DNA of 64,000 bases from Aquificales bacterium (GCA_027036735.1 JALWDU010000094.1:2326-66325); one strand, 5' to 3'. Shown: positions 4,719 to 59,130, numbered from the stretch's first letter. A program made the numbers and translations. Notes: generated by a model from the sequence alone, not told the origin.

Positions 4719-4937
4719 ATGGGTTGCGTAAAAGTTCACATTGACAAAGACCTCTGCACCGCTTGTTCTCTCTGCTACGAAAGACTTCCCGAAGTTTTCC
4801 AAGACGAGGGTGACGGTATCGCTACCGTTGGCGAAAACAACGAAGGTTGCTTCTGCGAAAACGTAGATGAAATTAAAGAAATCGCCGACGAGTGCCCCGC
4901 ATCCTGCATCATCGTAGAAGATGTAGACGGCTGCTAA
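4719..4937 (+). CDS. small single-cluster [4Fe-4S]/[3Fe-4S] ferredoxin
   Basis: 72 aa. Cluster ligands CTACSLC ... CPASC. GGAGG RBS upstream. Confidence 0.75.
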   Translation: MGCVKVHIDKDLCTACSLCYERLPEVFQDEGDGIATVGENNEGCFCENVDEIKEIADECPASCIIVEDVDGC

Positions 4938-5003
4938 TAATTCCGTCCAAATATTTCCTTCTATCCCCCTTTCGCTTCCCCCTTTGGGGGACAATGGTTC
5001 TAT

Positions 5004-23080: not shown

Positions 23081-23091
23081 AATTGCAAAAA

Positions 23092-23137
23092 TTCCGCCAG
23101 AAAGCCCTTTGTTTTAGCTAAGGGATGAATGGCGGAA
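23092..23137. repeat. 46-nt imperfect palindrome at the left end of the TnpB element (copy 1)
   Basis: ttccgcca-N30-tggcggaa with an inner ccctt/aaggg stem. A reverse-complement copy lies at 57956-57997. Confidence 0.7.
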
Positions 23138-23182
23138 AAATTGATTTTCTCTCCTTTTGTTGATAAATAAAAACTTAAACCC

Positions 23183-24430
23183 ATGCAAATAACCCGTTTC
23201 CACATAATAACTCAGAAAATCCCCACTAAATACTATCCACTCCTAAATGAGCTTCAGTTGGAAGCGGGTAAAATTTGGTCGGATAGCCTTAACCTTTTCT
23301 TTGAACTGTTTAAACAAACAGGAAAAGCCCCTAAAAAATCTCAAATCCAAAAGCTTGTTAAATCCTCCCTTTTGCATTCACAAACCACCCAAGCCATTCA
23401 GGATAGGCTCTTTGGAGCTTTAAAAAGCTACTTCAAAAACAAAAAGCAAAATCCTTCTGCTAAACCTCCAAAACCGAGAAAGTTTTATAACCTCATCTGG
23501 AAAAACCAAGCTATCCGCTATAAAAACGGAAAAATTCTTTTGCCTCTGTCAAGAAAAAGCGGAATAACTCTGTCTATACCGCTTAGAAAGAGGAAAAGGG
23601 AGTATTTAGAGGAATTGTTAAGCTCTAGGGCTAAGATAAGACAAGCGGAAATAGTTTTTAAAGGCTTTGAATACCGGTTAATTTTGCTGGTTAAGGAAAC
23701 GGTTGAGATAAGCCCTCCCGATAGAAATAAGGTTGTAGCTCTGGATTTGGGAGAAATTCACCCATTTGTAAGCTTTGACGGGGAAGAAGTTTTAATTTGG
23801 AACGGAAGATTATTAAGGAGTTATAAACAGCTAAGGTTAAAGCTTATAGCCTTGAAACAAAAGCTATTGGCAAGAAAACAAAAAGGAAGCAGAAGGTGGA
23901 AAAAGATTAAAAGAAGCTTAGACAGACAAATAGTGAAGGTAGGGAGGAAAATAGAGGACTTAGAACACAAGCTAACGAGAGCATTTGTTAAATACTGCAA
24001 AGCCAAAGGGATAGGAACGGTGGTAATAGGGAAGTTAAAAGGAATAAGGGAAAGGGCAAAATACGGCAAGAACGCCAATCAAAAAATCCACTTAATGTGG
24101 AGGTTTAATAAGCTATTGCAAAAGTTGGGATATAAATTAGAGAACGAGGGCATAGTGGTGGTGAAAGAAGATGAGAGCTACACCACCCAACTATGTCCTA
24201 AATGTGGAAATAGACATAAGCCCAAAAACAGAAACTATGTCTGTCCTGCATGTGGCTTTAGCTACCATAGGGACGGGGTAGGTGCGATAAATCTATTTAG
24301 GAGGTTTATGGAAAAAGTATCGGGGAGCTTTAATCTCCCCGTAGATGGACTGACACGCCCTCGGGGTGTGAAATACTCCCCGAGTAGCTCAGGGTGGGTT
24401 CTACCTACCCTGAGAAACCCCCTGCTTTAG
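23183..24430 (+). mobile_element. tnpB: IS200/IS605-family TnpB (OrfB) RNA-guided nuclease gene, no tnpA
   Basis: 415 aa. RuvC-like VVALDLGEIHP (D), VVKEDESYTTQ (E), YHRDGVGAINL (D). Zn finger CPKCG...CPACG. Confidence 0.85.
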
Positions 24431-24445
24431 CGGGGGAGTGTCATA
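24290..24445 (+). ncRNA. predicted omegaRNA scaffold overlapping the tnpB 3' end / right end
   Basis: Consecutive hairpins: cggggag-N7-ctccccg, ctcgggg-N10-ccccgag, ctcagggt-N11-accctgag, ccccctgc-ttta-gcggggg. The boundaries are guesses. Confidence 0.4.
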
Positions 24446-33228: not shown

Positions 33229-33901
33229 GTTCCAAACCCTTATGGAGATATGAATTGAAGTTTCATATCCTCCTTGAGGTTTTTTGTTTCCCGTTTTAAT
33301 CCTTTATGGGGATATAAAAATACTTAGCATCTAAAACCGAAAAACAGGTGCGTTTTAAGCCCCTATAGGGGCATAACAACTTTTGGAGGCAAATTTCTCT
33401 ATATCGTCAATATCGAGTTTCAATCCCTTCTAGGGACATAACAACAATCTTGGAAGATGATGGATTTACCCCCAACTATGTTGTTTCAATCCCTTATAGG
33501 AACATAACAACGTTCGTTGATATTGAAAATTCACCGCTGGGACGAAGTTTCAATCCCTTATAGGAACATAACAACAAAATCGTATTCTTAGAAGGACTCT
33601 GCTTTAGGGAGGGTTTCAATCCCTTCTAGGGACATAAAAACAAACTTCACCTACCACCCGCGGGACTGCTGTTGCTGTGTTTCAATCCCTTCTAGGGACA
33701 TAACAACCAAGGTTAAATTTAAAGAAAATGATTTAGAAAATTGTTTCAATCCCTTCTAGGGACATAACAACGAAATCAGGAAAAAGAAAATAATGTATCG
33801 AAAACAGAGTTTCAATCCCTTCTAGGGACATAAAAACTTCGAGGTTCGCCATATCCTTGGAATTATGGCTGTGTTTCAATCCCTTCTAGGGACATAAAAA
33901 C
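33229..33901 (-). CDS. placeholder
   Basis: placeholder. Confidence 0.
33229..33901 (-). CRISPR. CRISPR array: 8 conserved plus 3 decayed 29-nt repeats, 35-37-nt spacers, no adjacent cas genes
   Basis: Plus-strand repeat gtttcaatcccttctagggacataacaac at 33417, 33483, 33547, 33613, 33679, 33743, 33809 and 33873. Decayed copies at 33352 (5 mismatches), 33293 and 33229. The minus-strand reading ends GGGATTGAAAC and the decay is at the left end, so the leader is probably on the right (33902 onward). Confidence 0.93.
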
Positions 33902-34194
33902 CAAGATGAGGCCAATCTTATTAAGTTGCCAAGGAACCCAACCCTTACTTGGGTTTAAAGAATACCAAACCCACCTAAAGGAGTCAAGCAAAAATTGACT
34001 TTCTAAGTCAACCCTATATTGACATTAATTTCCTGGAGTGTACCCTTTCGTTGGAACTCTAAGACAAAACTCAATTCTGCAAAAAGTTTTTGTCAAATTT
34101 CAATCCTTAACTTGTCATTAAATCTTGAGTCTGACCTTATAAAGGTCAAAGTTATAAAATTTCTCCTCTCGCAATATCCCCGGGAGGGTTTTAA
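33902..34194. promoter_or_regulatory. AT-rich CRISPR leader / divergent nrdA promoter region with GTCAA/TTGAC palindromes
   Basis: GTCAA-N7-TTGAC at 33983-33999 and 34007-34023. Perfect TGACCTT-ata-AAGGTCA at 34132-34148, 47 nt upstream of the nrdA ATG. Confidence 0.4.
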
Positions 34195-37100
34195 ATGCTG
34201 TTTGAAGTCATAAAGAGGGACGGGCGCGTCGAGCCTTTCGATACGAAAAAGATAGAGAAGGTTATAAACGTCTGCGCCGAGGGGCTCAACATTGACCTGG
34301 AAAAGTTTTCCCAAAAGCTCGCGCTCTTTCTAAAACCTCGCATGACGACGCGGGAAATTCAGCACAACCTCATAACCGCCGCCATCTCCCTGATAGTCAC
34401 CGAGGAGAACAAGGAGGATTGGAGCAGGTTCGCCAACCGCCTCATTCTGGTCGATTTCAAAAAGGAGATGCGTGTCCGTCGGGAGCAGAAATACAACGCA
34501 AAGGTTACCCGTTACGGGTTTTTTGAAAATTTTGAGGACTTTTACAGGTTTTTAAACGAATACGTCCAAAAGGGGGTCTATTCGAAACTCTTCCTCGAAA
34601 TCCCCAAAGAGGTAATGGAGGAACTCTACTATGCCATTTTCGACAAGGATAACTTTTCCAACCCTTTGTGGAACAAAGCCAAACATATGCAAACGCAGAA
34701 GTTCATCCGCTCCTACCTTACGGAGGAAAACAACTTTCCCATAGAACTCCCGGAGGAGGTTTGGTTTCTCCAATCCCTTTTGGGGTTCCTGCCTTCGGTC
34801 AAAAACTACGGTAGGGACTGGGAGTATTACAAACAAAAGGTGCTGAAGCATTTCGAATACCTGTCGGAGTTTCTAATAATTCCCGCAACCCCGCAGATGT
34901 TAAACCTCCGCAGGGCTAGGGCAAATCTGTCTAGCTGCTTTATCCTCGATGTGAACGACAACACCGAGAGCATAGTCCACACCCAGAGCCAGATAGCCCA
35001 AATCTCGCGGAATGCGGGCGGTGTCGGTCTCTTCATAGGAAAACTACGCCCTTCGGGGAGTTGGATAAAGGGAAATAGGGGCAAAGCCAACAAGATAACC
35101 GATTGGGTCAAAATTTACGAGTCAACCGTCAACGCCTTCAACCAACAGGGTAAGCGTAAGGGTAGCATAACGGTTGCCCTTCCCGTTTGGCACAAAGATA
35201 TTTTGGACTTCCTCGAAGTTATAGACCTCGATATAGGGGAGATAACCAAAAAATCCCCCGACGTTTTCACCCAGGTGGTTATTCCCAACTTCTTCTTTAA
35301 GTTTGTAAACGAAAACCGCACCTTTTATCTGATAGACCACTACGAGATAACCCACATTTTGGGTAGAAAGGATTTAGACCTCTTAGAGGTATACGGCGAG
35401 GAAGCCGAGAGGAGATACGAGGAGATAGTCAACCTGATAGAGGAGGGTAAGGTTAAAAACTACAAGGCGGTAAACCCCCGAGAGGTCTTGAGAAAAATCT
35501 TCTACTACTGGGGTAGGAAGGGATTGCCTTACATCTTCTTTGAGGACAACGCCAATAAACCGTCGCCCTTTAAGGAGAAGATTTATTCGGCTAACCTTTG
35601 CGTGCATCCGAAAACGAAAATCCTGACCAAGGAGTACGGCTATGTGGAAATAGAGAAGGTTGCGGGTCAAATCCTCCACGTTTGGAATGGTAACGAGTGG
35701 AGCCTTTCCGCAATTTTCAAAACGGGCGAGAACTACAACAATTGGTATGAAATCGAATTTTCCAACGGTGAGAGGATTATTTGTACGGATTACCACAGGT
35801 GGTATGTAAAAAAAGACCCTAAAAAATACGGCAGGTCACCCACAGTGGTTAAGAGAACTTACCAACTGAAGGAGGGGGATATACTCGAAAAGTGGTCTCT
35901 TCCCCTTATAGAGGGCAGCGAAGAACTCCCATACGCGTACGAAAATGGGCTATTTTCTGCGGAGGGGACGGAATACGAAACATTTGATGTAATCTACCTA
36001 TACGACCGTAAAAGGAAATTAAAAGAGTTCTGCAGAGGTTTTTACAGAACTTACGAATATCCCAAAAACAAAATTTTAAAACTCTTTTACAAAAAGGGTG
36101 TGCTAAAACCCAAATTTTTTGTTCCCGACCACCGTTATACCGTTGAGAGCCGCATAAGGTGGTTGGAAGGGCTTTTCGACGGGGATGGAACCCTCGTAAG
36201 GAACGGAACCAACAAAAGCCTTCAGCTGGTTTCGGTCAATTACGAGTTCCTGTTAAAGGTTAAGAGAATGTTGGAAACCTTGGGGGTGAATACCAAAATA
36301 GTGGAGGGATACCCCGAAAGGGAAACGCTACTACCCGACCACAGAGGTGGGAAAAAACTTTATCGCTGCAAACCCTCGTGGAGGTTGTTGATACCCTCAT
36401 CCGAACTGGTGAAGTTGATAGACCTAGGTTTTTCCCCAAAAAGACTAAACGTTCGTATGGAAAAACTCCCCAACAGGAATGCCTCCCAATTCGTTCGGGT
36501 TAAATCGGTTAAAAAGTTGGAAAACTTCGTATGCGATAGCTATTGCTTCTTTGAACCCAAACTCAATAGGGGTGTTCTAAACGGTGTTTTAACGGGTAAT
36601 TGCGTCGAAAACTTTTCCCCCTTCCGCAACACCGACCCGAAAGACCTCTACTGTATCCCCGAAGAGGAGCTCGGATACATCCACACCTGCAATATAACGA
36701 ACGTAAACCTCCTAAAACTCTACGAGAAGGGTTATTTAAAAGAGACCGAGAGGTTGAAGGAATTTGTCTTCCACCTCTACGAGTATATGGATAACCTTAT
36801 CGACATCACCGACCTGCCGGTCAAAGAGAGCAAAAAGCATAACCGCCTCTTTAGAACGGTTACCGCCGGTTTTATGGGGCTCGCCGACCTCTTCGTTGCG
36901 AAATCGGTCGAAGACGGAAGGTATTACGGCTACCGCTACAGTTCGAGAAATGCCAATCCCGAAGATACCCTAAACCTTATAAGGGAAGTTTTCGGTAAAT
37001 TTTCTTTCCTCGCCGTTCTCGCCTCCACCGAGTTGGCGAAAGAGCGGGGTAAACCCCAAGGGTACGAAAAGACCAAATACCCCGATGGGGTCATTCTCGG

Positions 37101-37632
37101 AAGGTACGACCTAAAGAGGGAAAAAGATAGAGACCTCGTTAAGGACTTGATAGGAGAAAAGAACCTTAGGAGGTTGGAGGAAAATCTGTCCCTCTACGGG
37201 ATTAGGAATACGCTCCTCCTAAACTGTCCGCCCAACACCTCCACCTCCATACTCGCCGGCGTGAGCGCGGGGGTTATGCCGACCTTCTCCCTCACCCAGG
37301 TTGAAGACCAGCAAACCGGTCTGTTTGTCAATTTTGTTCCCCTATACCGCTACAAGTGGTTTTACGATACCTATACCAACTTTTCTTCCCTCTCCGACTA
37401 CGAAGACCTAACCGATATAGTCGCCGAAATTCAAAAATTTATCGACAGCGGAATTTCCTTCGAGATTACGGTAAATCACAACCACTTCGACACCGGGGAG
37501 AAGTTAACCACACTTTTCGCTCTTGTCCTCTCCGAGGCGAGGAAAAAGGGTATAAAAGCCCTCTACTATTGGAGGCATATACTCAAAGATAAAACCGTAG
37601 GGGTTGAGGAGTGCGAAAGTTGCGCCAATTAA
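34195..37632 (+). CDS. nrdA: class I ribonucleotide reductase alpha subunit, intein-containing
   Basis: N-terminal ATP-cone-like VIKRDGRVEPFD. The catalytic SANLC|VENF motif is split by a 334-aa intein. Followed by nrdB. Confidence 0.9.
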   Translation: MLFEVIKRDGRVEPFDTKKIEKVINVCAEGLNIDLEKFSQKLALFLKPRMTTREIQHNLITAAISLIVTEENKEDWSRFANRLILVDFKKEMRVRREQKYNAKVTRYGFFENFEDFYRFLNEYVQKGVYSKLFLEIPKEVMEELYYAIFDKDNFSNPLWNKAKHMQTQKFIRSYLTEENNFPIELPEEVWFLQSLLGFLPSVKNYGRDWEYYKQKVLKHFEYLSEFLIIPATPQMLNLRRARANLSSCFILDVNDNTESIVHTQSQIAQISRNAGGVGLFIGKLRPSGSWIKGNRGKANKITDWVKIYESTVNAFNQQGKRKGSITVALPVWHKDILDFLEVIDLDIGEITKKSPDVFTQVVIPNFFFKFVNENRTFYLIDHYEITHILGRKDLDLLEVYGEEAERRYEEIVNLIEEGKVKNYKAVNPREVLRKIFYYWGRKGLPYIFFEDNANKPSPFKEKIYSANLCVHPKTKILTKEYGYVEIEKVAGQILHVWNGNEWSLSAIFKTGENYNNWYEIEFSNGERIICTDYHRWYVKKDPKKYGRSPTVVKRTYQLKEGDILEKWSLPLIEGSEELPYAYENGLFSAEGTEYETFDVIYLYDRKRKLKEFCRGFYRTYEYPKNKILKLFYKKGVLKPKFFVPDHRYTVESRIRWLEGLFDGDGTLVRNGTNKSLQLVSVNYEFLLKVKRMLETLGVNTKIVEGYPERETLLPDHRGGKKLYRCKPSWRLLIPSSELVKLIDLGFSPKRLNVRMEKLPNRNASQFVRVKSVKKLENFVCDSYCFFEPKLNRGVLNGVLTGNCVENFSPFRNTDPKDLYCIPEEELGYIHTCNITNVNLLKLYEKGYLKETERLKEFVFHLYEYMDNLIDITDLPVKESKKHNRLFRTVTAGFMGLADLFVAKSVEDGRYYGYRYSSRNANPEDTLNLIREVFGKFSFLAVLASTELAKERGKPQGYEKTKYPDGVILGRYDLKREKDRDLVKDLIGEKNLRRLEENLSLYGIRNTLLLNCPPNTSTSILAGVSAGVMPTFSLTQVEDQQTGLFVNFVPLYRYKWFYDTYTNFSSLSDYEDLTDIVAEIQKFIDSGISFEITVNHNHFDTGEKLTTLFALVLSEARKKGIKALYYWRHILKDKTVGVEECESCAN
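35599..36600 (+). mobile_element. intein in NrdA (LAGLIDADG homing-endonuclease type), aa 469-802
   Basis: Starts CVHPKTKIL, block B CTDYH, LAGLIDADG-like LEGLFDGDGTL, ends VLTGN followed by +1 Cys. The exteins rejoin to SANL-CVENF. Confidence 0.85.
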
Positions 37633-47991: not shown

Positions 47992-50900
47992 TTAGAGGTT
48001 TTCCCCTCCCTCGAGGATTTCCACCAATTTACCCAATTTGGTCTTTAGCAGGTTTAGGTTGTTGGCGTTGGGCAAAACCCAATACTCCTTTCCGAGTTCT
48101 ATTTCGTATAAGTCCCCTTCCCCCGTAAGGAGTTTTATATAGGTTGGGGTACCCTCGTAGGGGTCGGAAAGTTTTTTCAAAAACTTTCGGAGTTTTTCTA
48201 AAGTTTCGTCCCTAACGTGGGTTTCCTTGAGTTTTATAACCACTTTTAGTGTTTTTTCTACATCTTCGGGCGTTAACACCCTCCGGACGATGAGTTTTTT
48301 GCGCTCCGTTTCGAAATCGGTGGTGAGGTCTCCCTCAATCACCACAACTTTATCCTCTCCGAGTTTGTCTTTAACAACTTCATAAACATCGGGGAAAACT
48401 ACGCACTCGACAATACCGGTTTTGTCGATTAGGTTGAATACGGCCATATATTTCCCCGCGCGGGTTCTCTTCTCCTCAAAGTCGACCACCACGCCGGGGA
48501 TTTTCAAATCGTTCGCACTTTCAACCTCTTCGAGGTCTTCAATTCTCGTTCTATACCTCTCCAAGAGGTGGGGATATTTGTCGAGAGGGTGACCGCTGAT
48601 GTAGAAACCCAAAAGTTCCCTCTCCCTCCTCAAGCGTTCGAGAAAATCCTCCACACTTTCGGTGTTTACGTTTCCATTTTTTCCTTTTGGGGTTCCGAAA
48701 AGGGAATTCTGTCCCACCGCGAGGGAGGGTTTACCCTCCGCCTGAACCTTTTTGAGGAGTTCCTCCCTACTCTCACCGGTAAAGTCAAACGCCCCCGCTT
48801 GAATGAGGGCTTCGATAACCTTTTTATTCACCTTACGCTTGTCAACCTTCCTAACGAAGTCGGCAAGGGATTTGAAACTTCCGAATTTCTTCTTAGCCTC
48901 TTGGATAGCTTTAGCCGCCTCCTCCCCGACACCCTTAATCTTCGCCAGACCATACCTTATATAGGTCTTTCCGTTTTTCTCCTCCAACGAAAAGTGGATG
49001 TCGGATTTGTTAATATCCGGCGGTAGGAGTTCGAAACCGAAGAGCTTTGCATCCTTTATAAGGGATATGAATTTGTTTTCGTTCTTTTCCGTCGAGAGTT
49101 TTACCGCAAAAAAGACACCCGTGTAGTGGGTTTTGAAAAATGCGGTCCAATAGGAGATATAGGCGTAGGCTGTCGAGTGGGATTTATTGAAGGAATAGGA
49201 TGCGAATTTCTCTATGCTAGCCCAAAGCTCCTCTATCTTTTTGCGGTCGAAGCCCCTCTTAACCGCCCCCTCGATGAACTTTTCGCGCATTTTTTGGATA
49301 AGGTCGGAGTTGTGGACTATCACACAATTGGCTATAAAGTTGGAATTTTCCACCGTAAGGTCATAAGTTTCTTCCACTCCAATAGGTTCTATGTTCTCTA
49401 TGTAATCCCAAAATATGTCGCCGTTACAGAGGTTTAAAAGTTCCTCATCCTCGAGGACAGCGGCGAATTTTTGTAACCTGTTGGGCGTAATATTTAGGGA
49501 GGTATTTATTCCACCATATTCACCGACCTTTGCCGAGAGCTTAGCCAAAGTCAATTCCTTTTCCTCCGCTTTTCGCTGAATTTTTAACCATACCTCTTTT
49601 GGTAGTGTTTCTTTTTTGAAATTGGTTGTTTTTTGTTTCAACTTATCGATTAACCCCTTAAGTTTTTTCTTCTTTCTTCCCACGACATGGTTTTGAATTA
49701 GCTTCAAAAACTTAAGTAGGTTTTCCCTACCCCTAACCTCAACGCGGTAATAAGTTCTTTTTTGACCTTTATAGGTTACTTTTTTCTCCTTTACCGCCGC
49801 GTTAATGCCGAATCTCCTTAGTAAAAGCAAAATTTGCAAAGCCAAGCGGTGCGATTTGGTAAGAAACTCGGAATACTCGTAGTTTTTGGTTATTACAAAG
49901 CTTCCATCGGTAGTCCACAAAGCGCCCAAAAAGGCAGAAATAACTTCCTTTGGAGCGGACATTATTTGATTGGGAATAAATTTATCCTCCGCTTTTTGGT
50001 TGTAGAGTCCCAACGAACGCAAAAAGTTTTTAATATCCCTTCTTTGGGAGGTTTTATTTTTTTGATAGATGTAAACCGCTTTAACATTTCGCGGATTAGT
50101 GTAAACCTTTATCTCGCTTTGGGGAAATTCTCGGCTTACCAACTCTATAAAGTCCTTAATCACTTCTTCGTCGGAGGAATAGAACATAACACTTTTTAGG
50201 TTTCCGTCCCCCAAAAGGTATCCAACTATTTTTGCCCTTTCGGGGGAAGTTGTTGAATGTTCCTTCACATTTATAGTTAAAGGCGTGGCTATCCTTTCCC
50301 CTTTTATGAGTTTCTTTAAAGGTTTCCATCCGTTTACGGTTAAAAATAGGTGAGAAGCCGTTGCCTTAATAGTTCCCGAATAGCGGAGTTTCACCCGATA
50401 GACCAAATCCTTCCCATTTCTGTGGACCTCTACAATTTTTGAGGGCTCGCTGTGGAAGTTTTTATTTACGGAAGCAACCTTTAGAGGAGAGTTTATTAAG
50501 TTAACCGTAAAGGTTTTCTTACAATCTTTGCAGTATACGGAAACTTTATTGTTTCTTTTTCCATTAATGTATGTATTTTCGGAATTGCAATAGCGGCATT
50601 TTACTTTGCCCCTGTTTCTATATTCGTAGTTCTCTATTAACGTTAAAAGTTCGACTGTGGAACCGTCGGCAAGGGTTACCAACGTATCGGCGGTTAAGCA
50701 ACGCTTCTTTCCTATTCCTTTCCTCAGGGTATCCGCCTCACCCGGCGTGAAACCGGATAGCACTTGGGACATCTTCATTATCTGCTCTTGATAGATACAG
50801 TTATGGCAGACGATATTGTTTCCTATAAAGTTGTGGTACTTTTCGATTTCAAGGTCGTAAACGTGCTCTTTTCCTACAAAAGTAATTCCTTTTACCGGGA

Positions 50901-53900
50901 TAAAGGAAACTTTTCCCCTTTCGGGAACAGCCACCAAATCTTTACCCACTTGGAGGTCTTTCAATTCCTTCCAACCTTCGGGGGTCAAAAATTTGTGGTC
51001 TTTTGTAGCCTTTATTTTTGCACCGTTGGAAAGAACGAGTTCGTAAACCTCTTTAACCCCGTTGTCGAAAACTTTGGAAATTTTACCCTTTACGGGTTTA
51101 TTCGTCTCCGTATCCACCGAAAGGACTTCCAAACCCGTTAACTTCCTCTCGACGATTTCCCTCAATTTCAAACTCCTACCGTCGTAGAGGGTTATTTCCG
51201 TATCCCCCGTAAGACAGAGTCCGTAAGTCTCCTTCAAGATAGGTTCGAGTTGGGGAAATTCGTATTCGATGGGCTCCTCGCCGTGCTTTCTCCTTACAAA
51301 GCTATCGACTAGACCCGATTTGAGGGGTCCCGGGCGGTAAAGCGCCAAAACCGCGATTAGGTCGTCGAAGCGGTCGGGTTTTAACCTAACGAGGAGCTGC
51401 TGCATACCCCTACTTTCGAGCTGGAATACCCCCGTAGTCCTTCCGCTCTTTAAGAGGTCGTAAACCTTCGGGTCTTCGTAGTTAAGGGAGAGTAAATCTA
51501 TATCTTCCCCGTAGAGGTCTTTAACCATCTTCTTCATGTGGTCTAACTCTGTGAGGGTCTTAAGTCCGAGAAAGTCCATCTTGAGGAGTCCTATCTCTTC
51601 AAGGACTCCCATGTCGTATTGGGTTGCAACGATAAACTTCTCCTGTTTTGTTTCCTTATCCTTTTCCTTCCTCGCGTATAGGGGAACGAGCTCTATAAGG
51701 GGTTTGGGGGCTATAACCACACCCGCCGCGTGGAAACCGGTATGTCTGGTAAGCCCGTCGAGTTTTTTCGCTATATCGACAGCCCTTTTTAGGGAGGGGT
51801 CGGAATTTACCATTTGACGGAACTTAATAACGGCGTCCTCTATGTCCGGTCTCTCCCCATATTTTTCCTTCAGTTGGTCTATACTCCAATCGGTCATCTC
51901 CTCCAGGGAGAGTTGGGAACCTTGGGTTTCCCCTTGGGGGATAAGTTTGGCGAGCCTATCCGCCTTCTCGAGGGGAATGCCGAGCGCACGGCAGACGTCC
52001 CTGATAACCGATTTGGACTTCAGGACATTGTAGGTAATAATCTGGCTGACGTTGTCCCTTCCGTATTTGCGCCTAACGTAATCTATAACGTCGTCCCTCC
52101 TATCCTGACAGAAATCGACGTCTATGTCGGGCATAGACACCCTTTCGGGGTTTAGAAAACGCTCAAAGAGCAGGTCGTGCTTTATAGGGTCTATATCGGT
52201 AATCCCGAGGGCGTAGGCGACCAGCGAACCGCCGGCGGAGTTGTGTATCGCCACCGTCGAGGTGGTATAGGAGTGGTCGAATGGAACGGTAATGTCGTAA
52301 ACCTCACCCTTATAGGGGACTTTTTCAACACCCCTAACCTTCACGTAGATAAACCTTTCATCGACAAAGAAGGAATCGTTTCGGAAAAACTTTTGACTGG
52401 GCAACTTAATGGGAAATTCTTCAAAGGTTTCGTTCCACCTGAGGAGCTGTTTTCCCGAAAGTTTAACCTTGTATTCGGTATTCCAATTTTCCCTTTTCCT
52501 TTCCCCCTTTATTACGCTCGCCCAAAAGCCGAAGCGTGCCAAAAGCAGGCGAAGCTGATAAGCCAAAGTCTGTGAAGTAGTGGAGTAGATAATAGACGCC
52601 GTTTTGGAGCTTCTGCCGTCGTAGCCGTCCCCCCTAAAGAGGTAGGCGATTAGCGTTTTCACATATTCGTCCTCCCCGTGAAGAACGACCTCGGTCGGTA
52701 TCCTCTTGTTTTTAGCCCTATCCCCGCAAAGGTTTCTCAAAAATTGGGCTACTATTTTGGTCTTAAATTCAACCTTTAAAGCCCTTCTGGTGGAGGACTT
52801 AAAAATTTTTCCCTCTACGTTGAAAACCTCTTTAAACAATCTCAAGAGTTCTTCGGCGTATTTCCGCTCCCACTCGGCGAAACCGAAACCTACAACCCCA
52901 CCGTGTTCGTCAATCTTTGTATAACCCTCGGAGATGAAATAACCGAGAATTTTCGCCAATTTGTGGTCTAACTTTACAAATCTCGGAACCTTTGCGGTTT
53001 GGAGTCTATTGCTTCCCCTCTCGTAGTATAGGGAATTCTTGTCCCACCTTAGGGCTTTACCCTTTTCCACATACCTTAGGAGGTCGAAAACCACACCCTT
53101 TTGGGTCGATTTTTGCCTCGGGAAGACCAAAAAGTCGTCCTTTTTCAACTCCTCTGCGGGTATCCACCTTAACTTGTACTTCTCGTAAGGTTTATCTTTG
53201 CAATACCTATTGCAGGTAGGTTTACAAACCGTTTCCTTTACGGATTTAACCTTGCACTTTTCCGTTTGCAGTGCTAAAACTTTGTGGTCTCCCGTAAGGG
53301 TTAGTTTTTCCCCTCCGATTTCGACCTCTACGAGTTCCTCATTAACTTCATACCTATAGGTGTTTAAAACGGGTAAAACGGCACCCCTGTGGGTTAAAAC
53401 GAAATCCCCGACCGAAACCTCCTTTATGGGTTTGATTTCACCGCTTCCGAGCATTACCGGTGTATCGGGCAAAACGCAACCCCTTCCGGGACCCACCGGG
53501 ATATCGTTCTTTTTAGCCCAGTTGATAAAGTCCTGAACTATGAGGAAATAGCCGGGGAAACCCATTTGGGAGATAACGTCGAGTTCGTATTCCAAACGTT
53601 TCCAATAGGTTTCGTTGTCCTTAGCCTGTCCCCTCTCTATGCGTTTTTTTAGACCCTCCTTTGCCAGTTTACGGAAGTAACTTTCGAGGTCTTCCCCTTC
53701 GGGGACTTCGTAAACCGGCATTTTGTATTCTTTGTTTTCGAAATACTCCAATCGGTCGGATACCTTTTCGGCCACCTCAAGGGTGTTTAAGAGAGCCTTT
53801 TCCCAACCCTCAAAGCGGTTTTCGAATTTCCTCCAAACCTCTTCGGGTGATGCGAAGTGTAGTTCCAACTGCTGGAGTTTTTGCCCGTGAGGGGTTTGGA

Positions 53901-54624
53901 TTAACTCCTGATAGGTGGTTTTCATCTGGAGGGCGGTCAGTATCATATGGGCGACCTTGTCCTCGGGCTTGAGGTAGTGAACGTCGCAGGTGGCTATTAG
54001 CTTAAGGTCGTGCTTTTTGGCGAGTTCTACAAGGATGCGGTTTGCAGTTATCTGCTCCTCTATATCGTGGGGTTGAAGTTCCACATATAGGTCATCTTTT
54101 CCAAATATCTCGACCAACTTTAGGAGCCACTTTTCAGCCTCTCTCTCCTCACCTCGGGAGGCGTAATATGTGGGTAACCCTTTGAGGCAAGCCGTTAAAC
54201 ATATAAGACCCTCTCGGTGTTCGTTTAAAACCTCCAAATCTATCCTCGGTTTGTAGTGAAAGCCCTCCAAAAAGCCTATTGAGGAGAGTTTCATAAGGTT
54301 TTTCAGCCCAACGTCGTTTTTCGCTATAAGCACTATGTGGTGGTTTTGTGTGTCGGTGTAGTTGTCCTCCTTGCCCTTACCCCTCTTGTCGAAGCGGGAA
54401 CCCTTTGTTATGTAAGCCTCCATTCCGATAATCGGCTTTAGACCCTTGTCCTTCAGGGCGTGGTAAAACTTGTAAGACCCGAACAGGTTCCCGTGGTCGG
54501 TCATCGCGACCGCCTTGTAGCCTAGCCTTTCCGCATACTCGGGAAGTTCCTTTATCTTTATAGCCCCGTCGAGGAGCGAAAACTGTGTGTGCAGGTGGAG
54601 GTGAACGAATTCCCTTTTACCCAT
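47992..54624 (-). CDS. dnaE: DNA polymerase III alpha subunit interrupted by three inteins
   Basis: 2210 aa. PHP domain (FVHLHLHTQFSLLDG), GPGRG|SAGGSLVAYALGIT, FNKSHSTAYA, OB fold. After removing 413+139+464 aa the extein is 1194 aa. Confidence 0.95.
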   Translation of the reverse strand: MGKREFVHLHLHTQFSLLDGAIKIKELPEYAERLGYKAVAMTDHGNLFGSYKFYHALKDKGLKPIIGMEAYITKGSRFDKRGKGKEDNYTDTQNHHIVLIAKNDVGLKNLMKLSSIGFLEGFHYKPRIDLEVLNEHREGLICLTACLKGLPTYYASRGEEREAEKWLLKLVEIFGKDDLYVELQPHDIEEQITANRILVELAKKHDLKLIATCDVHYLKPEDKVAHMILTALQMKTTYQELIQTPHGQKLQQLELHFASPEEVWRKFENRFEGWEKALLNTLEVAEKVSDRLEYFENKEYKMPVYEVPEGEDLESYFRKLAKEGLKKRIERGQAKDNETYWKRLEYELDVISQMGFPGYFLIVQDFINWAKKNDIPVGPGRGCVLPDTPVMLGSGEIKPIKEVSVGDFVLTHRGAVLPVLNTYRYEVNEELVEVEIGGEKLTLTGDHKVLALQTEKCKVKSVKETVCKPTCNRYCKDKPYEKYKLRWIPAEELKKDDFLVFPRQKSTQKGVVFDLLRYVEKGKALRWDKNSLYYERGSNRLQTAKVPRFVKLDHKLAKILGYFISEGYTKIDEHGGVVGFGFAEWERKYAEELLRLFKEVFNVEGKIFKSSTRRALKVEFKTKIVAQFLRNLCGDRAKNKRIPTEVVLHGEDEYVKTLIAYLFRGDGYDGRSSKTASIIYSTTSQTLAYQLRLLLARFGFWASVIKGERKRENWNTEYKVKLSGKQLLRWNETFEEFPIKLPSQKFFRNDSFFVDERFIYVKVRGVEKVPYKGEVYDITVPFDHSYTTSTVAIHNSAGGSLVAYALGITDIDPIKHDLLFERFLNPERVSMPDIDVDFCQDRRDDVIDYVRRKYGRDNVSQIITYNVLKSKSVIRDVCRALGIPLEKADRLAKLIPQGETQGSQLSLEEMTDWSIDQLKEKYGERPDIEDAVIKFRQMVNSDPSLKRAVDIAKKLDGLTRHTGFHAAGVVIAPKPLIELVPLYARKEKDKETKQEKFIVATQYDMGVLEEIGLLKMDFLGLKTLTELDHMKKMVKDLYGEDIDLLSLNYEDPKVYDLLKSGRTTGVFQLESRGMQQLLVRLKPDRFDDLIAVLALYRPGPLKSGLVDSFVRRKHGEEPIEYEFPQLEPILKETYGLCLTGDTEITLYDGRSLKLREIVERKLTGLEVLSVDTETNKPVKGKISKVFDNGVKEVYELVLSNGAKIKATKDHKFLTPEGWKELKDLQVGKDLVAVPERGKVSFIPVKGITFVGKEHVYDLEIEKYHNFIGNNIVCHNCIYQEQIMKMSQVLSGFTPGEADTLRKGIGKKRCLTADTLVTLADGSTVELLTLIENYEYRNRGKVKCRYCNSENTYINGKRNNKVSVYCKDCKKTFTVNLINSPLKVASVNKNFHSEPSKIVEVHRNGKDLVYRVKLRYSGTIKATASHLFLTVNGWKPLKKLIKGERIATPLTINVKEHSTTSPERAKIVGYLLGDGNLKSVMFYSSDEEVIKDFIELVSREFPQSEIKVYTNPRNVKAVYIYQKNKTSQRRDIKNFLRSLGLYNQKAEDKFIPNQIMSAPKEVISAFLGALWTTDGSFVITKNYEYSEFLTKSHRLALQILLLLRRFGINAAVKEKKVTYKGQKRTYYRVEVRGRENLLKFLKLIQNHVVGRKKKKLKGLIDKLKQKTTNFKKETLPKEVWLKIQRKAEEKELTLAKLSAKVGEYGGINTSLNITPNRLQKFAAVLEDEELLNLCNGDIFWDYIENIEPIGVEETYDLTVENSNFIANCVIVHNSDLIQKMREKFIEGAVKRGFDRKKIEELWASIEKFASYSFNKSHSTAYAYISYWTAFFKTHYTGVFFAVKLSTEKNENKFISLIKDAKLFGFELLPPDINKSDIHFSLEEKNGKTYIRYGLAKIKGVGEEAAKAIQEAKKKFGSFKSLADFVRKVDKRKVNKKVIEALIQAGAFDFTGESREELLKKVQAEGKPSLAVGQNSLFGTPKGKNGNVNTESVEDFLERLRRERELLGFYISGHPLDKYPHLLERYRTRIEDLEEVESANDLKIPGVVVDFEEKRTRAGKYMAVFNLIDKTGIVECVVFPDVYEVVKDKLGEDKVVVIEGDLTTDFETERKKLIVRRVLTPEDVEKTLKVVIKLKETHVRDETLEKLRKFLKKLSDPYEGTPTYIKLLTGEGDLYEIELGKEYWVLPNANNLNLLKTKLGKLVEILEGGENL
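49309..50700 (-). mobile_element. DnaE intein 3 (aa 1309-1772, LAGLIDADG endonuclease plus CxxC..CxxC insert)
   Basis: CLTADTLVTL..., block B TASHLF, IVGYLLGDGNL and LGALWTTDGSF, ends VIVHN|S. Splits GIGKKR|SDLIQK. Confidence 0.9.
50800..51216 (-). mobile_element. DnaE intein 2 (aa 1137-1275, mini-intein)
   Basis: CLTGDTEITL..., block B TKDHKF, ends IVCHN|C. Splits ETYGL|CIYQEQ. 139 aa with no endonuclease domain. Confidence 0.9.
52240..53478 (-). mobile_element. DnaE intein 1 (aa 383-795, LAGLIDADG endonuclease-containing)
   Basis: CVLPDTPVML..., block B TGDHKV, LAGLIDADG-like ILGYFISEGY and LIAYLFRGDGY, ends VAIHN|S. Splits GPGRG|SAGGS. Boundary codons verified on DNA. Confidence 0.9.
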
Positions 54625-55019: not shown

Positions 55020-55375
55020 CCGTATTTCAGGTGGTTTTACATTTTTTGAAATCCCTTGAAGTTTTTTAAAAAATCCCGTGATTGCAGTAGGCTGGAACCC
55101 CCTTATAGGCTAAAAACTACAAAGGATTATATTAATTTAACATCGGAGAATCTAAAAAGGGTTATTTTATGTCGGAGAATTACCTTAACGGAGACAATAT
55201 AAGGTAAAATACTCCTAAAAGAGGTTTTATTTTCCCAACTTTTGTTGGATTATAGAACTGATAACTTCATATGGTTTCTATATTGGTTTCTCACCTTCTG
55301 GGGGTTTTGATTTTTGGGAAAGCTTCCCCTGAGAGGGGACGCCATAAATCTGCTCCTTTCGGAGGATATACCCCT

Positions 55376-55407
55376 GTTTTTCCTATCCCGCTTTGGGAAT
55401 TTGAAAG
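55376..55407 (+). repeat. CRISPR-repeat-like solitary unit
   Basis: gtttttcctaTCCCgctttGGGAatTTGAAAg compared with the array repeat in its minus-strand reading GTTTTTATGTCCCTAGAAGGGATTGAAAC. They share the 5' GTTTTT, the TCCC/GGGA stem and the TTGAAA tail. Confidence 0.4.
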
Positions 55408-55999
55408 GAATGCTCCTATCGGAGTTTTTACCGAGCAATAACAACGCCCGTTTGGAGCAATTTAGACTTTTTTTCTAATACGTTAGAAGTGTCAGAATTT
55501 AAAGTCCCTTATCGTTTGTTATTGATGTTGCTATTGGTGCCATCTTTTATCTGCGGTTTAAAACTGTCCAAAGCCGGAATACCTGTAACTTTTACGGTAA
55601 CGAGTGGTAAATATTGATAACAATCACAATAAATGTTTCTTTATAAACTAAAGAAGTAAAACAAATTTATATTACCACTAAAAGTGATATCTCTCCTAAA
55701 GAGACTATGTGTATTTGTTTAAATTGAAACCACGATATGAAAAACTTCCGAAGGATGGGCGGATAAAAGGACTCGCTTATTTCCTATATTTATCATCAAT
55801 CTACCGTACAAGTTTTATCCAAATTATCTTAAAAGGGAAATTTCTTTAAACCACTCAACTTTGAAGCTAAAAAGGGGGGATACTCTTATAGCCTTTCAAA
55901 TTTATCCAAGACCTAAAGAGGGACAAATTTTTCCATTGAGGAATTAAAAGAGATCTTAAATAAGGAAAAGTATACTTTTTGAAAAGTAGAGGTTTTAAG

Positions 56000-57748
56000 T
56001 TAATTATTGAATTTAAAATCATTCAAGATAAATTCCTTAATCTTTTCTTTAAATTTATCGTTATACTTCAAATATAAAGTTCCATTTTTAAGAAAAAATT
56101 TTGTTATACAATCTTCAGTCCCCAAGTGAGCTAAGAAATTTCTTTTCTCTTTCTCAAGATAACTTTCTATATTTATATTGTTAATTTGACAATTCTTGTT
56201 TTTAGATATAGCTAGCTCTTGGGGCTCAGAAGATGCTATATTTTTTAACTCATTAATTCTTTTATCCTTCCATTCCCTATCTATAAAGACTTCATTTAAA
56301 TCTAAATTATACTTTCTAAACAGTTCCTTAAAATTTTTCTTTACTTTTTCTATAGGTAAAGCCTCTTCCGAAAACTCTAAATATCTAACACTTTCATTAT
56401 AAAATCCTTTAAAGGAAGCCCAGAAGTTTTGGGTCAAGTTTACTCCCAACATAATTAGATAAGTTAAGTTTCTAAAATATAAGGCATTAAGTTCTTTAGG
56501 ATTTATATTAATTTCTATTATCTTATCATTAACTTTTATGGAAGTTTTGGAAAATATTTGTCTTCTGATGTTGAAAAGTTTACCCAATCCTTGTATTATT
56601 TCATCGGGCTTTAAAAGTTTCTTTTGAAGAACCAAACCTAAAATAATACCTTTTTCTAAACTATTAAACAATAGTATACTTTGATTAACAACTTCTTCAA
56701 AATCCAAACCCGATAAACCCTTAAAATTTAAAGTTCTGGAGAATTTTTTAAAATCCTCACTTTTCATTTTTTCCTTCGTTAAAGGCTTAGAGAAAAATGC
56801 TATTCTTTTTATTTCCTCTACGGAAAAATGTTTTATATCCTCTTTTTGGGGAATTCCCATTACCGGTTCCGCGGATATAAGATAAAATTCTCCTTTATTT
56901 TCTTTTTTTCCGAGAAAGAAAAAATTCCAAAAGACTACAGAGTTATAAAAACTTTCCAAAAGTTCAACTACAGAGGCATTTAAACCGGTTGAAACATCAA
57001 GGTAGCATTGGAAGTTTAGATTTTTATTACCTATTTGGTTTAATTTTTTAATAAAATCGGAAATGAATAAAATATAGAAATATAGAGTTCTATCCTGAAA
57101 TTGTCCGTTAAATTTTAAAATCTTACCCCTTTTCTTATAAAAACCTATAGACGGTATAATTTCATAGTCTATGCTATCCTGTAACAACTTCTTCCACTTT
57201 AAATCTTCTTCCCCCAAAATTTTGAATACTTTAGACTTATTTAAAAATGGTGTTAATTCTTCTTTGCAAAAATCTTGTAAATCCTCCTTTTCGGCAATTA
57301 ATTTATTAAAGATTTCGTCTAGTCCCTGCCACTCTAAATCTTCTTTGAAAAAAGAAACAAAAGCTTTAATTTCATCATAAATTTTTTGGCTTTCTTTTAC
57401 ACTTATGCCTGGTTTTTCAAATCTTTCTAATAGACTTTTTAATTTCTTAGTATAAAAATTTTCGAAATCTTCTTTAAATTTATTTATCAAACTCTTAAAT
57501 TCCGTATCGTTATTTTTACTTTCAGCTTCTATTTCATCAATTTCGAAAATGCTTAAAGGAATTAAAATATTTAACTTAACATTTTGATGTTTATATTCCT
57601 TTAAATACCTGAAGAGTGCCAAAGAGGGTGTTGGGGCTACTATCTTTTTAGTATCGTTGTTTTCACCATTAAATTCCCAAGTAACCAACTTATAGGCTTT
57701 ACTAAAAAAATTTCCTGCAAGGGAATATATCACATTTTCAATAGGCAT
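56000..57748 (-). CDS. csx1: stand-alone Csx1-like CARF/HEPN CRISPR ancillary protein (582 aa)
   Basis: N-terminus VIYSLAGN..YKLVTWEF...APTPSLALFRYL...VKLNILIP fits the CARF/Csx1 pattern. DxTHG-like LDVSTGLN. C-terminal HEPN R-x4-H KRNFLAHLG. Very AT-rich. Confidence 0.6.
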   Translation of the reverse strand: MPIENVIYSLAGNFFSKAYKLVTWEFNGENNDTKKIVAPTPSLALFRYLKEYKHQNVKLNILIPLSIFEIDEIEAESKNNDTEFKSLINKFKEDFENFYTKKLKSLLERFEKPGISVKESQKIYDEIKAFVSFFKEDLEWQGLDEIFNKLIAEKEDLQDFCKEELTPFLNKSKVFKILGEEDLKWKKLLQDSIDYEIIPSIGFYKKRGKILKFNGQFQDRTLYFYILFISDFIKKLNQIGNKNLNFQCYLDVSTGLNASVVELLESFYNSVVFWNFFFLGKKENKGEFYLISAEPVMGIPQKEDIKHFSVEEIKRIAFFSKPLTKEKMKSEDFKKFSRTLNFKGLSGLDFEEVVNQSILLFNSLEKGIILGLVLQKKLLKPDEIIQGLGKLFNIRRQIFSKTSIKVNDKIIEININPKELNALYFRNLTYLIMLGVNLTQNFWASFKGFYNESVRYLEFSEEALPIEKVKKNFKELFRKYNLDLNEVFIDREWKDKRINELKNIASSEPQELAISKNKNCQINNINIESYLEKEKRNFLAHLGTEDCITKFFLKNGTLYLKYNDKFKEKIKEFILNDFKFNN

Positions 57749-57955
57749 TTAAGTATCAATTTTAGAAAACTTTAAAACTTTCCCAAGTTTCGTAAATATA
57801 ATTCTCAACCCACAACCCATTCAAGTTTTTCAACGATATAAATTTGAACTCTATCCTTTTTGGGATTCACAATCCCTTTTATTCTCTATATAAGCCTTTC
57901 CAATTCATATCTCCCTATGAGAGAGACATGGAAAATACTTAACTGATATCTATAG

Positions 57956-57997
57956 CCGCCATTCATCCTTTAGCCAAAGCAAAGGACTTTCTGGCGG
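57956..57997. repeat. imperfect palindrome, reverse-complement copy of the TnpB left-end palindrome (copy 2)
   Basis: ccgcca-ttcatcctttagccaaagcaaaggactttc-tggcgg. The outer stems are identical to 23092-23137, and the 30-nt interior matches the reverse complement of copy 1 at 26/30 positions. Confidence 0.7.
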
Positions 57998-58140
57998 AGG
58001 TTTTGTAAAAAGACTCCCCTTTCATAAGCGCAAGGTAAAATACATAATGTCTTCATAGAAAACGTTCGCTGGAAACCCTCTATCTGTGATAGGGGGAGGA
58101 AAGCGACCAAAGGAGAAAAATGCTTGTAAACTCCAAAAGT

Positions 58141-58400
58141 TTGTTTATAATAAACAAGGTAGGTTGGTTCTTTGGAAACACAAGGGGGAATAGGTGAGTT
58201 TCCTATTCCCCAACCCGCAAGGTTAAAAACAAAAATAAAAATAACAATGTTTAAAAACCTTGTGGGTTAGCCTAAAACAAGAATAAGCCCCTTGTGAGGG
58301 GATTGGGCTAACAACCCGCCTTGGTGGTGGCTATCTCCTTTTGGAGTAGCCACTGCCTAAAGTCAAGCCCCGCTGCTCATAGCGGGGTGGTTGAATTTTT
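58141..58400 (+). ncRNA. candidate structured RNA or cis-regulatory leader of unknown class, ending in a hairpin plus T-tract
   Basis: Stems: 58141-47/58151-57; 58185-94/58202-11 (10 bp); 58213-24/58256-67 (12 bp, A-rich 31-nt loop); 58266-72/58306-12; 58288-92/58297-301; 58327-38/58343-53; 58368-74/58381-87 followed by ...gaattttt. Confidence 0.35.
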
Positions 58401-58446
58401 AAGAAACATATGGAATTTTGGATTATCAACATTAAATTCCCTACAT

Positions 58447-59130
58447 ATGAAACTAAAAAAATTTGCAAAAACCCTACCGGGGATACTTTTTGCCCTTTTC
58501 CCCCTAACGGGGTTTGGGATAAATAACTTCCACTCCTACGGGGGGATATATCACTACGGAACACCTTACGGTCTCTATTACGTCGAAAACCTACCCAAAC
58601 ATAGGTTGAGTGAAAAGGAGAAAGAGGAACTCCTCTATATGAGGGAGGAGGAAAAACTGGCGAGGGATGTCTATTTGACCCTATACCGCAAGTGGAGGCT
58701 TCCAATCTTTAGAAATATCGCCCGCTCCGAGCAGAGACATATGGATATGGTCGGCGTCCTGATAAAAAAATACGGACTGAAAAACCCGGTAATAGACCGC
58801 GTGGGTGTATTTACCAACAAACACATTCGGGAGTTATACAACAAATTGGTCGCCGAAGGGGAAAAATCCCTCATCGACGCCCTGAAAGTGGGGGCGCTTA
58901 TAGAGGAGCTGGACATTACCGACCTCAAAAAGGCTATGGCGAATACCGACAACCGCGATATACGCATAGTTTACGCCAACCTGATGAAGGGCTCCAGAAA
59001 CCACCTTAGGGCTTTTGTCCGCCTTTTGAGACGCTTCGGCTACGACTACATCCCCAAATACCTACCTAAGGAGGGGTTCGAAAAAATAGTTTCCACACCT
59101 ATAGAGAGGGGTTTTATCCGAAACCCCTAA
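58447..59130 (+). CDS. DUF2202 ferritin-like protein with signal peptide
   Basis: MKLKKFAKTLPGILFALFPLTGFG, then LLYMREEEKLARDVY...ARSEQRHMD (ferritin-like E..H). The listed start at 58321 runs through the structured non-coding region. Confidence 0.7.
   Translation: MKLKKFAKTLPGILFALFPLTGFGINNFHSYGGIYHYGTPYGLYYVENLPKHRLSEKEKEELLYMREEEKLARDVYLTLYRKWRLPIFRNIARSEQRHMDMVGVLIKKYGLKNPVIDRVGVFTNKHIRELYNKLVAEGEKSLIDALKVGALIEELDITDLKKAMANTDNRDIRIVYANLMKGSRNHLRAFVRLLRRFGYDYIPKYLPKEGFEKIVSTPIERGFIRNP

Follow-up and report, generated by a model that had tools for sequence, protein, structure and literature searches.

A low-GC patch carrying an intact csx1-like gene and a solo IS605-family left end in an Aquificales bacterium: a probable eroded fragment of a transferred CRISPR accessory module

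Is the csx1-like gene that lies between dnaE and a DUF2202 gene in an Aquificales bacterium the cargo of a transposable element, a leftover of a resident clustered regularly interspaced short palindromic repeat (CRISPR)-Cas locus, or something else? The gene is found in a stretch of 64,000 nucleotides (nt) (GCA_027036735.1 JALWDU010000094.1:2326-66325; hereafter the window, meaning the whole of this stretch), in which an earlier note had described an AT-rich island and had proposed that the gene is bracketed by inverted copies of the palindrome of a resident TnpB element and by repeat-derived fragments, as in a mobilised or eroded CRISPR accessory module. The island, the csx1-like gene and one inverted palindrome are upheld by the present analysis; the other repeats and ends listed there are not. 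The explanation that we favor, to which we assign as a whole a probability of about 0.7, is that the island is an eroded fragment of a transferred type III CRISPR accessory module next to a lone left end (LE) of an IS605-family insertion sequence (IS), rather than cargo carried between two ends, and that the whole patch is a lineage-specific mosaic at a variable junction that is also a synteny breakpoint.

The csx1-like gene and the remains of its neighbours

GC content is 0.25-0.30 over 55.6-57.8 kb of the segment between dnaE and the DUF2202 gene and 0.47 in the window as a whole, in agreement with the AT-richness first described. The core of the 3.35-kb island (55537-57957) has a GC content of 27-32%, close to the 26-32% of donor-type loci such as L003 and far from the 47% of the host, which argues that the core is foreign and is suggestive of its horizontal acquisition from a low-GC lineage. 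Nucleotide homology to three donor-type loci (L003, L004 and L005; 71-77% identity) spans 57958 to 55777, thus exceeding csx1 on both sides.

The one intact gene of the island encodes, as had been proposed, a Csx1-like protein with CARF and HEPN domains, from an open reading frame (ORF) of 582 amino acids (aa). This protein matches the PADLOC profiles CARF_HEPN (CARF9--CARF_HEPN; 2e-21) and Csx1/Csm6 (6e-17 over residues 6-573), and it also matches TIGR01897 (1e-10 over residues 152-569; 41 bits, below the cutoff of 110) and PF09455 (2e-4, under the curated cutoff). The HEPN motif R536-N-F-L-A-H541 (Rx4-6H) and the CARF motif DVSxGLN are invariant across all six homologues, the former aligning with KRNFFAH of the Csx1 protein of a sister lineage (L015; see below). 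The ten best PDB matches returned by Foldseek for an AlphaFold model were all Csx1 or Csm6 proteins; the model, built from a six-sequence alignment, is poor (predicted local distance difference test [pLDDT], 57) and served for coarse fold ranking only. Six close homologues are all that a collection of 5.8 billion proteins contained, and a profile search returned 12 representatives (50% identity) below 1e-30 and 170 below 1e-3, a series that shades into ordinary Csx1 proteins 430-480 aa long; no Csx1-like relatives were found in viral contigs. The ratio of nonsynonymous to synonymous divergence (dN/dS) from L003, 0.12 at a dS of 1.16, is indicative of evolution under purifying selection.

Promoter-like sites on the minus strand (57824-57795 and 57786-57759), located upstream of csx1 within the cas2 remnant described below, are probably those from which the gene is transcribed. 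By analogy with other members of the family, the Csx1-like protein would act as a HEPN RNase activated by cyclic oligoadenylate (cOA) and would be useful only with a Cas10-type cyclase encoded elsewhere in the genome; no cas10 or other cas gene was found within the 64-kb window, including beside the island and beside the CRISPR array. We note that this array (33293-33905) consists of 9-10 repeats of GTTTCAATCCCTTCTAGGGACATAACAAC at a spacing of 64-66 and is flanked by genes for an epimerase and for an intein-containing ribonucleotide reductase (34195-37632). It lies 21 kb from the island and is surrounded by housekeeping genes, with no cas genes nearby.

The donor-type loci indicate what the neighbours of csx1 would once have been. 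L003, whose Csx1-like protein shares 75% aa identity with that of the window, has the order cas2, a gene of unknown function, a second cas2 and csx1-like, followed by a convergent gene encoding a protein of 581 aa. L004 and L005 have the same convergent gene, such that the pair is kept in all three relatives for which context is available. The convergent gene product ends in a STIV_B116-like domain (PF08960; 4e-23 over aa 470-566 in L003, 1e-22 in L004), which corresponds to the DUF1874 family of cyclic tetra-adenylate (cA4)-degrading ring nucleases, AcrIII-1/Crn2 (10.1101/778746). In L003, where this ring-nuclease partner is encoded at 3715-5460, the match to DUF1874 is limited to the final ~100 residues; over the N-terminal 470 there is just a weak, sub-threshold SAVED-like match, and the protein may represent an undescribed architecture in which a sensor is fused to a ring nuclease. 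Two paralogous csx1-like/convergent Crn2-domain pairs with the same upstream 226-aa gene (L004 and L005) occur in the one assembly GCA_054017155.1; the two copies are separated by a dS of 0.42, with a dN/dS of 0.29.

Both neighbours persist in the window as pseudogenes (Table 1). Upstream of csx1, the 5'-truncated and frameshifted cas2 was recognized by tblastn (72% and 88% identity in two frames) and by DNA alignment to L003. It contains, together with the promoter-like sites, the hairpin at 57860-57890 that had been taken for a repeat-like piece and that proves to be cas2 coding sequence, for which L003 has AAAATTGTGAATCCCAAAGAAG. Downstream, tblastn and three-frame translation retrieved aa 318-336, 374-390, 395-412 and 506-581 of the L003 ring-nuclease protein, distributed over three frames with several frameshifts and stops and with ~93 codons deleted at 55777. 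The Csx1-like protein would therefore have lost its cognate ring-nuclease off-switch in this genome.

Coding remnants also account for the supposed second palindrome. The stretch at 55741-55768(+), thought to be an internally deleted copy, was rejected as such in that it encodes EKLPKDGRIKG, the counterpart of EKLPEDEKING (GAAAAACTTCCAGAAGATGAAAAGATAAATGG; aa 395-412) in L003. Its alignment with the LE is at chance level whether gapped or with gaps of free length, the latter yielding a score of 34 that 73 of 4264 other window tiles equal or better. The CRISPR-repeat fragments fared no better: an nhmmer profile of the window's own nine repeats (array 33293-33905) does not exceed 4.9 bits anywhere in the island, a level also found at dozens of random sites, and full-length Hamming matches to the repeat (17-18 of 29 positions) occur in the island at the expected background rate. 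A further repeat-like fragment at 55045 was discarded, as it lies in host sequence conserved in relatives.

The left end and its junction with cas2

The remaining palindrome is well supported. The copy at 58008-57956(-) is 87% identical over 53 nt to that of the resident element at 23083-23135(+), from which it differs at 7 of 53 positions; no such match was found in shuffled sequence, with 0 expected. On the minus strand it reads TTAC-AAAACCT-CCGCCAGAAAG...GGATGAATGGCGG. The resident element encodes a TnpB protein matching its profile at 188 bits. A search of prokaryotes, each species represented by a single genome, for CCGCCAGAAAG-N17-25-GGATGAATGGCGG yielded seven loci, from a vent "Gammaproteobacteria" metagenome-assembled genome (MAG) (two contigs), Promethearchaeota, Bathyarchaeota, Limnoraphis, Deinococcus and an unclassified bacterium; no LE motif was found in viral contigs. 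All nine LE copies compared have the same outer stem and GAAAG/ATGAA internal loop, partly by design of the search pattern, and seven of them have TTAC 7-8 nt ahead of the outer stem. The inner stem covaries, five of its eight pairs changing on both sides with 96% of cells paired, a level that none of 500 shuffles reached.

The motif lies upstream of tnpB in the resident copy and in L010, L011, L012 and L019. In L021-L024, four of the nine close TnpB relatives described below, a gene for a Y1 transposase (PF01797, 2e-43) directly precedes tnpB, and in L023 the LE, which reads ATTAC|AAAAAATTCGCCAGAAAG...ATGAATGGCGG, is located upstream of Y1 tnpA and tnpB. Because the same motif precedes tnpB or tnpA plus tnpB elsewhere, the palindrome qualifies as a genuine TTAC-type IS200/IS605 LE rather than a generic repetitive extragenic palindrome (REP) or terminator, a distinction that the earlier note had left to be checked. 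The LE core also occurs, with a covarying inner stem and with TTAC 7-8 nt upstream, on Promethearchaeota, Bathyarchaeota, cyanobacterial and Deinococcus contigs (L007, L009, L010 and L011), and the IS lineage therefore crosses domains. Several copies are irregular. At 23079-23092, the resident tnpB element is flanked by TTGC where seven of the nine copies have TTAC, which suggests a mutated target or target-adjacent motif (TAM) and possibly an immobilised copy. The LE hairpins of L019 and L023 carry insertions of 30-42 nt (extra hairpins) inside the structure, and L020, whose hairpin lies 137 nt upstream of tnpB, has unrelated sequence in place of the left half; that this LE, too, is broken inside its hairpin suggests that such hairpins are fragile.

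An IS unit also needs a right end. Nine close TnpB relatives from vent metagenomes (79-93% identity) were used to define the element ends, and in all of them the right-end boundary falls at ...GGGGGAGTGTCAT, the flanks diverging after GTCAT. A covariance model of the right end/omega-RNA (R1, which covers that of the sampled family, ending in ...GAGTGTCAT, and not other TnpB families) detects the right end of L006, a locus outside its training set, at 79.9 bits and ~100 nt downstream of the LE. L006 (111-398) has its LE hairpin at 111-152 and its right end/omega-RNA at 251-398, abuts the 3' end of leuB and contains no gene; gene-less mini-elements of this family therefore exist.

No comparable end is present in the island. 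The hairpin at 58368-58387, which had been likened to the terminal hairpin of the TnpB element, aligns with it at a score of 22, and three unrelated window sites score 23, 23 and 22; R1 gives 13.7 bits at 58248-58395 (E ~0.03, rough) as compared to 13.1, 12.4 and 12.0 bits for unrelated matches. On the minus strand downstream of csx1, neither blastn nor R1 found a right end. Between 54.6 and 58.5 kb, tblastn queries with the TnpB of the window and the TnpA of L023 detected no remnant, and the tnpA gene that might have acted in trans is missing from the 64-kb window. In place of a gene bracketed by inverted palindromes, the island thus has a single palindrome, with no right end, tnpA or tnpB and with breakpoints away from the IS end.

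The inner side of the LE is suggestive of how this came about. In close family members, the hairpin is followed in all cases by AAAAA(C)TTGATTT. In the island, IS homology ends exactly at ...ATGGCGG and is followed by CTATAGATATCAG, that is, cas2 from codon 27 onward. L003 reads ...TTACGG|TTATAGATACCAA at the corresponding position; the two partners share three bases (CGG), through which the inner foot of the LE is fused to cas2 codon 26. In IS608, TnpA cleaves at TTAC, on the opposite side of the hairpin from the inner foot. Since cleavage occurs at TTAC and not at the inner foot, the LE-cas2 junction is not a transposition product. A joining or deletion event at the hairpin foot, illegitimate and mediated by microhomology, would have removed the IS interior and right end, and the island LE appears to be a scar rather than a functional transposon terminus for csx1.

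The site in relatives and the history of the patch

Comparison with relatives confined the island to the window lineage; it is lineage-specific and not fixed. On the left, L030, L031 and L032 match the window in dnaE and a 65-aa ORF and align through 55065, whereupon they diverge; L030 continues past this breakpoint with HPPK, UDP-glucose dehydrogenase and further genes. On the right, L015 aligns from 58412, and L013, L014, L028 and L029 from 58431-58433. L013, L028 and L029, whose DUF2202 region is 87-97% identical to that of the window, diverge from it left of 58433 and have a hydantoinase gene, 53 nt and then DUF2202, with nothing CRISPR-related in between; L014 has yet another sequence upstream of DUF2202, the ORF of which has no Pfam match. 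The junctions of the presence/absence polymorphism therefore map to 55065/55066 and ~58412/58433, and not to 58004-58008 or any right end. The 55.7-58.0 kb unit shares with IS200/IS605 units an LE with TTAC and lacks the three other defining features: a right end, a tnpA or tnpB gene, and a polymorphism with IS-precise junctions.

The left neighbour of the DUF2202 site in the window is dnaE instead of the hydantoinase gene of the relatives, and a rearrangement was therefore involved; the patch sits where two otherwise separate neighbourhoods were joined. As a source of this change, inversion between the two inverted IS copies was rejected, the hydantoinase gene and the right-hand genes of L030 being absent from anywhere in the 64-kb window. 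Independently of the island, both dnaE inteins (Hint/LAGLIDADG matches; 49306-51220 and 52241-53479) are missing from the L030 dnaE, which is otherwise 92-96% identical, pointing to a presence/absence polymorphism of these inteins between the window and L030.

L015 has an insertion of its own at the site: 1635 nt (L015 581-2215) of 36.5% GC between hydantoinase and DUF2202, the empty counterpart of which is L013 2231-2250. The insertion encodes a canonical 503-aa Csx1 (PF22230 and PF09455) that is 28% identical to the window Csx1-like protein over 64 aa only, around the HEPN motif, and otherwise unrelated. Both the window island and the L015 insertion have at their right edge the 18 nt ATTTTGGATTAYCAACAT (58415-58432), the first part of a 23-nt stretch directly upstream of DUF2202; these 18 nt are not in the empty sites, the last five (58433-58437) being also present in the empty-site relatives. 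Different csx1 genes thus appear to have arrived independently at the same junction, which is among the least ordinary features of the locus.

The two outer pieces of the island differ in nature. The left piece (55066-55536) has no significant match to the donor loci, to any fetched locus or in plasmids and phages, and neither its short ORFs nor the small ORFs of the island have a Pfam match. The right piece (58009-58411) has no copy elsewhere in the window or in the fetched loci, plasmids or phages, is absent from all relatives and contains no TnpB remnant. Its fold over 58040-58400 is far more stable than that of shuffled sequences (z = -7.5 on the plus strand, -7.4 on the minus strand), and this 0.35-kb segment is the other feature of the locus that stands out as unusual. 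Rfam at permissive thresholds returned nothing credible for the island, for 57940-58450 or for the tnpB element.

Collectively, these findings lead us to propose that the core at 55537-57957 would have been transferred from a low-GC donor, as part of a type III CRISPR ancillary module in which the order was [cas2], csx1-like and a convergent gene for a ring nuclease with a Crn2 (DUF1874) domain. An IS, or a gene-less mini-IS, of the resident tnpB family would first have sat at the junction. Microhomology-mediated illegitimate recombination at the base of its hairpin would then have joined the IS to the foreign fragment, or deleted across the IS, with loss of the IS interior and right end and with the LE left as a scar. 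An IS at the junction followed by illegitimate recombination is the most likely history that we infer. Of the earlier interpretation, this retains the eroded CRISPR accessory module (cas2 and ring-nuclease pseudogenes and an intact csx1-like gene) and abandons the IS ends flanking a cargo.

Several points weigh against this proposal. No relative with an intact IS at the site was found and the order of events was not observed; the LE-cas2 junction could predate the transfer and have formed in the donor; and the proposal does not account for the flanking pieces 55066-55536 and 58009-58411. As regards the gene itself, the curated Csx1 models (TIGR01897 and PF09455) match only below their cutoffs, the structural model is poor (pLDDT 57), the dN/dS covers the entire divergence from L003 and not the branch in the present host, and, there being no cas10 or other cas gene in the 64-kb window, the activity of the Csx1-like protein here is putative.

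The possible earlier origin of the junction leads to a rival history in which the LE came with the foreign fragment, the truncation of cas2 by an IS605-family element dating back to the donor or to an intermediate host. The 7 of 53 positions at which the island LE differs from the resident copy, the clean LE-cas2 junction and the fact that the adjoining 58009-58411 segment is also foreign to relatives would all fit such an import. However, the GC content of the LE (0.47) and of the adjoining segment (0.42) is host-like as opposed to that of the donor (0.27), the closest LE variants (those with a GCTTTRGCTAA loop) are from vent MAG contigs with a TnpB like that of the host, and, with TnpA cutting at TTAC as known from IS608, the truncation is no insertion product in either host. 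We regard this history as unlikely.

Decay in place of a resident CRISPR-Cas locus eroded by IS insertion, which had been the other half of the earlier proposal, would explain why cas2, csx1 and ring-nuclease remnants are found together, and it could draw on the canonical csx1 at the same site in the sister lineage L015 and on the orphan CRISPR array 21 kb away in the window. Yet the site is empty of anything CRISPR-related in the three relatives with the hydantoinase|53 nt|DUF2202 arrangement, the core has a donor-like GC content of 27%, the L015 csx1 is an unrelated gene that is itself a low-GC insertion, and no remnants of the window's own repeat were detected in the island. Such a history is in our view very unlikely.

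A different kind of explanation is that the LE hairpin, the structured 0.4-kb segment or both have been exapted as an insulator or terminator, as an RNA that regulates csx1 or DUF2202, or as an orphan guide-like RNA. The extreme predicted structure (z = -7.5) and the promoter-like and terminator-like sites on the plus strand are suggestive of a function of this type, as is the well-kept sequence of the LE although its partner parts are gone. Against it, the segment has neither a homologue nor covariation data nor an Rfam match, palindromic hairpins form on one strand as readily as on the other, and the preservation of the LE may just reflect its recent origin; exaptation therefore strikes us as highly doubtful. 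The boldest reading takes the site upstream of DUF2202 for a dedicated capture point for stand-alone CARF-HEPN genes: sister lineages each acquired a csx1 gene at this site, the two genes are unrelated, and ATTTTGGATTAYCAACAT ends both insertions. The structured 0.35-kb segment (58040-58400) would then be an undescribed RNA of a capture or regulation system or, alternatively, an orphan guide-type RNA from an unsampled transposon family. We consider this a long shot. Finally, that IS200/IS605-type ends bracket csx1 as non-transposase cargo mobilisable by TnpA in trans is scarcely credible, for although one genuine LE lies upstream of csx1 in the orientation that it has upstream of tnpB, and the family includes Y1 tnpA (L021-L024) and gene-less mini-elements (L006), the second palindrome reduces to chance similarity and coding sequence, no right end was found with a model that recovers an untrained one at 80 bits, the unit beside the LE begins midway through the cas2 codon series instead of with IS-internal sequence, the breakpoints (55065 and ~58412) are not at TTAC|LE, and the window has no tnpA.

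Table 1. Features of the island, its flanks and the resident tnpB element, in window coordinates.
Feature	Coordinates	Strand	Description
Window-specific patch (island)	55066..58411	none	between host sequences common to relatives on both flanks
Left outer piece	55066..55536 (471 nt)	none	GC 0.37; unstructured, fold z-score -0.78
Ring-nuclease pseudogene	55537..56000	+	of a 581-aa DUF1874/Crn2-domain protein; convergent with csx1
csx1-like gene	56000..57748	-	intact, 582 aa; CARF + HEPN, long-form Csx1 subfamily; GC 0.27
cas2 pseudogene	57765..57957	-	codons 26-87 only; in-frame stop and 7-nt duplication shifting the frame
Solo left end (LE)	57956..58008	-	TTAC, 7 nt, hairpin CCGCCA-GAAAG-stem/loop-ATGAA-TGGCGG
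Strongly structured segment	58009..58411	none	seven GC-rich hairpins; GC 0.42
Sigma70-like promoter	58124-58151	+	TTGTAA-16-TATAAT; promoter scan
Terminator-like hairpin	58367-58388	+	terminator scan
23-nt stretch	58415..58437	+	ATTTTGGATTATCAACATTAAAT; directly upstream of DUF2202
dnaE	47992-54624	-	two inteins
DUF2202 gene	58447-59130		right neighbour of the island
Reference tnpB-only IS605-family element	23083..24444	+	LE hairpin 23093-23135; tnpB 23183-24430; end ...GGGGGAGTGTCAT at 24444

Comparison with known systems

The island is made of known kinds of parts in ordinary decay and is, as such, a fairly ordinary genome scar. Much of what was gained is clean-up, the picture of transposon ends carrying a CRISPR accessory gene being reduced to one real IS605 LE and coding-sequence look-alikes. 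With IS608-like, TTAC-targeting members of IS200/IS605 (Y1 TnpA and TnpB, or tnpB only in the IS1341 type), the island LE shares the TTAC, the short spacer and an imperfect subterminal hairpin; it differs from them in standing without a right end/omega-RNA, tnpA or tnpB and in having a truncated cas2 on its inner side. Palindrome-associated transposable elements (PATEs) and other gene-less mini-derivatives of IS200/IS605 resemble the island in having an LE hairpin without a transposase gene, but their two ends lie close together, as in L006 (LE at 111-152, right end at 251-398, 80 bits), whereas the island has no right end. The survey of these elements nonetheless yields an LE consensus (TTAC, 7-8 nt, CCGCCAGAAAG-stem-GGATGAATGGCGG, with a covarying inner stem) and a carrier lineage in bacterial and archaeal MAGs.

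The location of the island invites comparison with variable defence-gene hotspots, the site upstream of DUF2202 being empty in three relatives, occupied by a canonical csx1 in L015 and by the island in the window. In contrast to such hotspots, this site showed neither an integrase nor att repeats nor any recognised hotspot machinery, and the left neighbour has changed in the window. A conserved junction with independent acquisitions of different csx1 genes is of use in its own right.

The Csx1-like protein has in common with Csx1 and Csm6 proteins (P. furiosus Csx1, 4EOG; T. onnurineus Csm6, 6O6S; SSO1389, 2I71) the Rx4H motif RNFLAH and the CARF motif D-V-S-x-G-x-N; it matches the PADLOC and NCBIfam Csx1 profiles end to end and finds its best fold matches among them. 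It departs from these proteins in its greater length (by ~100-150 aa) and a confident helical insertion at about residues 70-190, in scoring below the curated cutoffs, in belonging to a small subfamily and in standing alone, without cas10 within 64 kb. A pairing of this effector with a ring nuclease is also known, from the Csx1-Crn2 fusion of Marinitoga (PMC7293037, PMC11317161). The donor-type loci L003, L004 and L005 likewise always pair csx1-like with a gene that has a C-terminal DUF1874 domain. Unlike in the Marinitoga fusion, the two genes are separate and convergent, the 581-aa protein has an additional, weakly SAVED-like N-terminal region, and the window copy is a pseudogene. The locus thereby brings to attention a small long-form Csx1 subfamily whose native loci always have a convergent DUF1874 (Crn2-type) partner, and it offers a natural case in which selection apparently maintained an RNase effector through the post-transfer decay of its cas2 neighbour and of its ring-nuclease off-switch.

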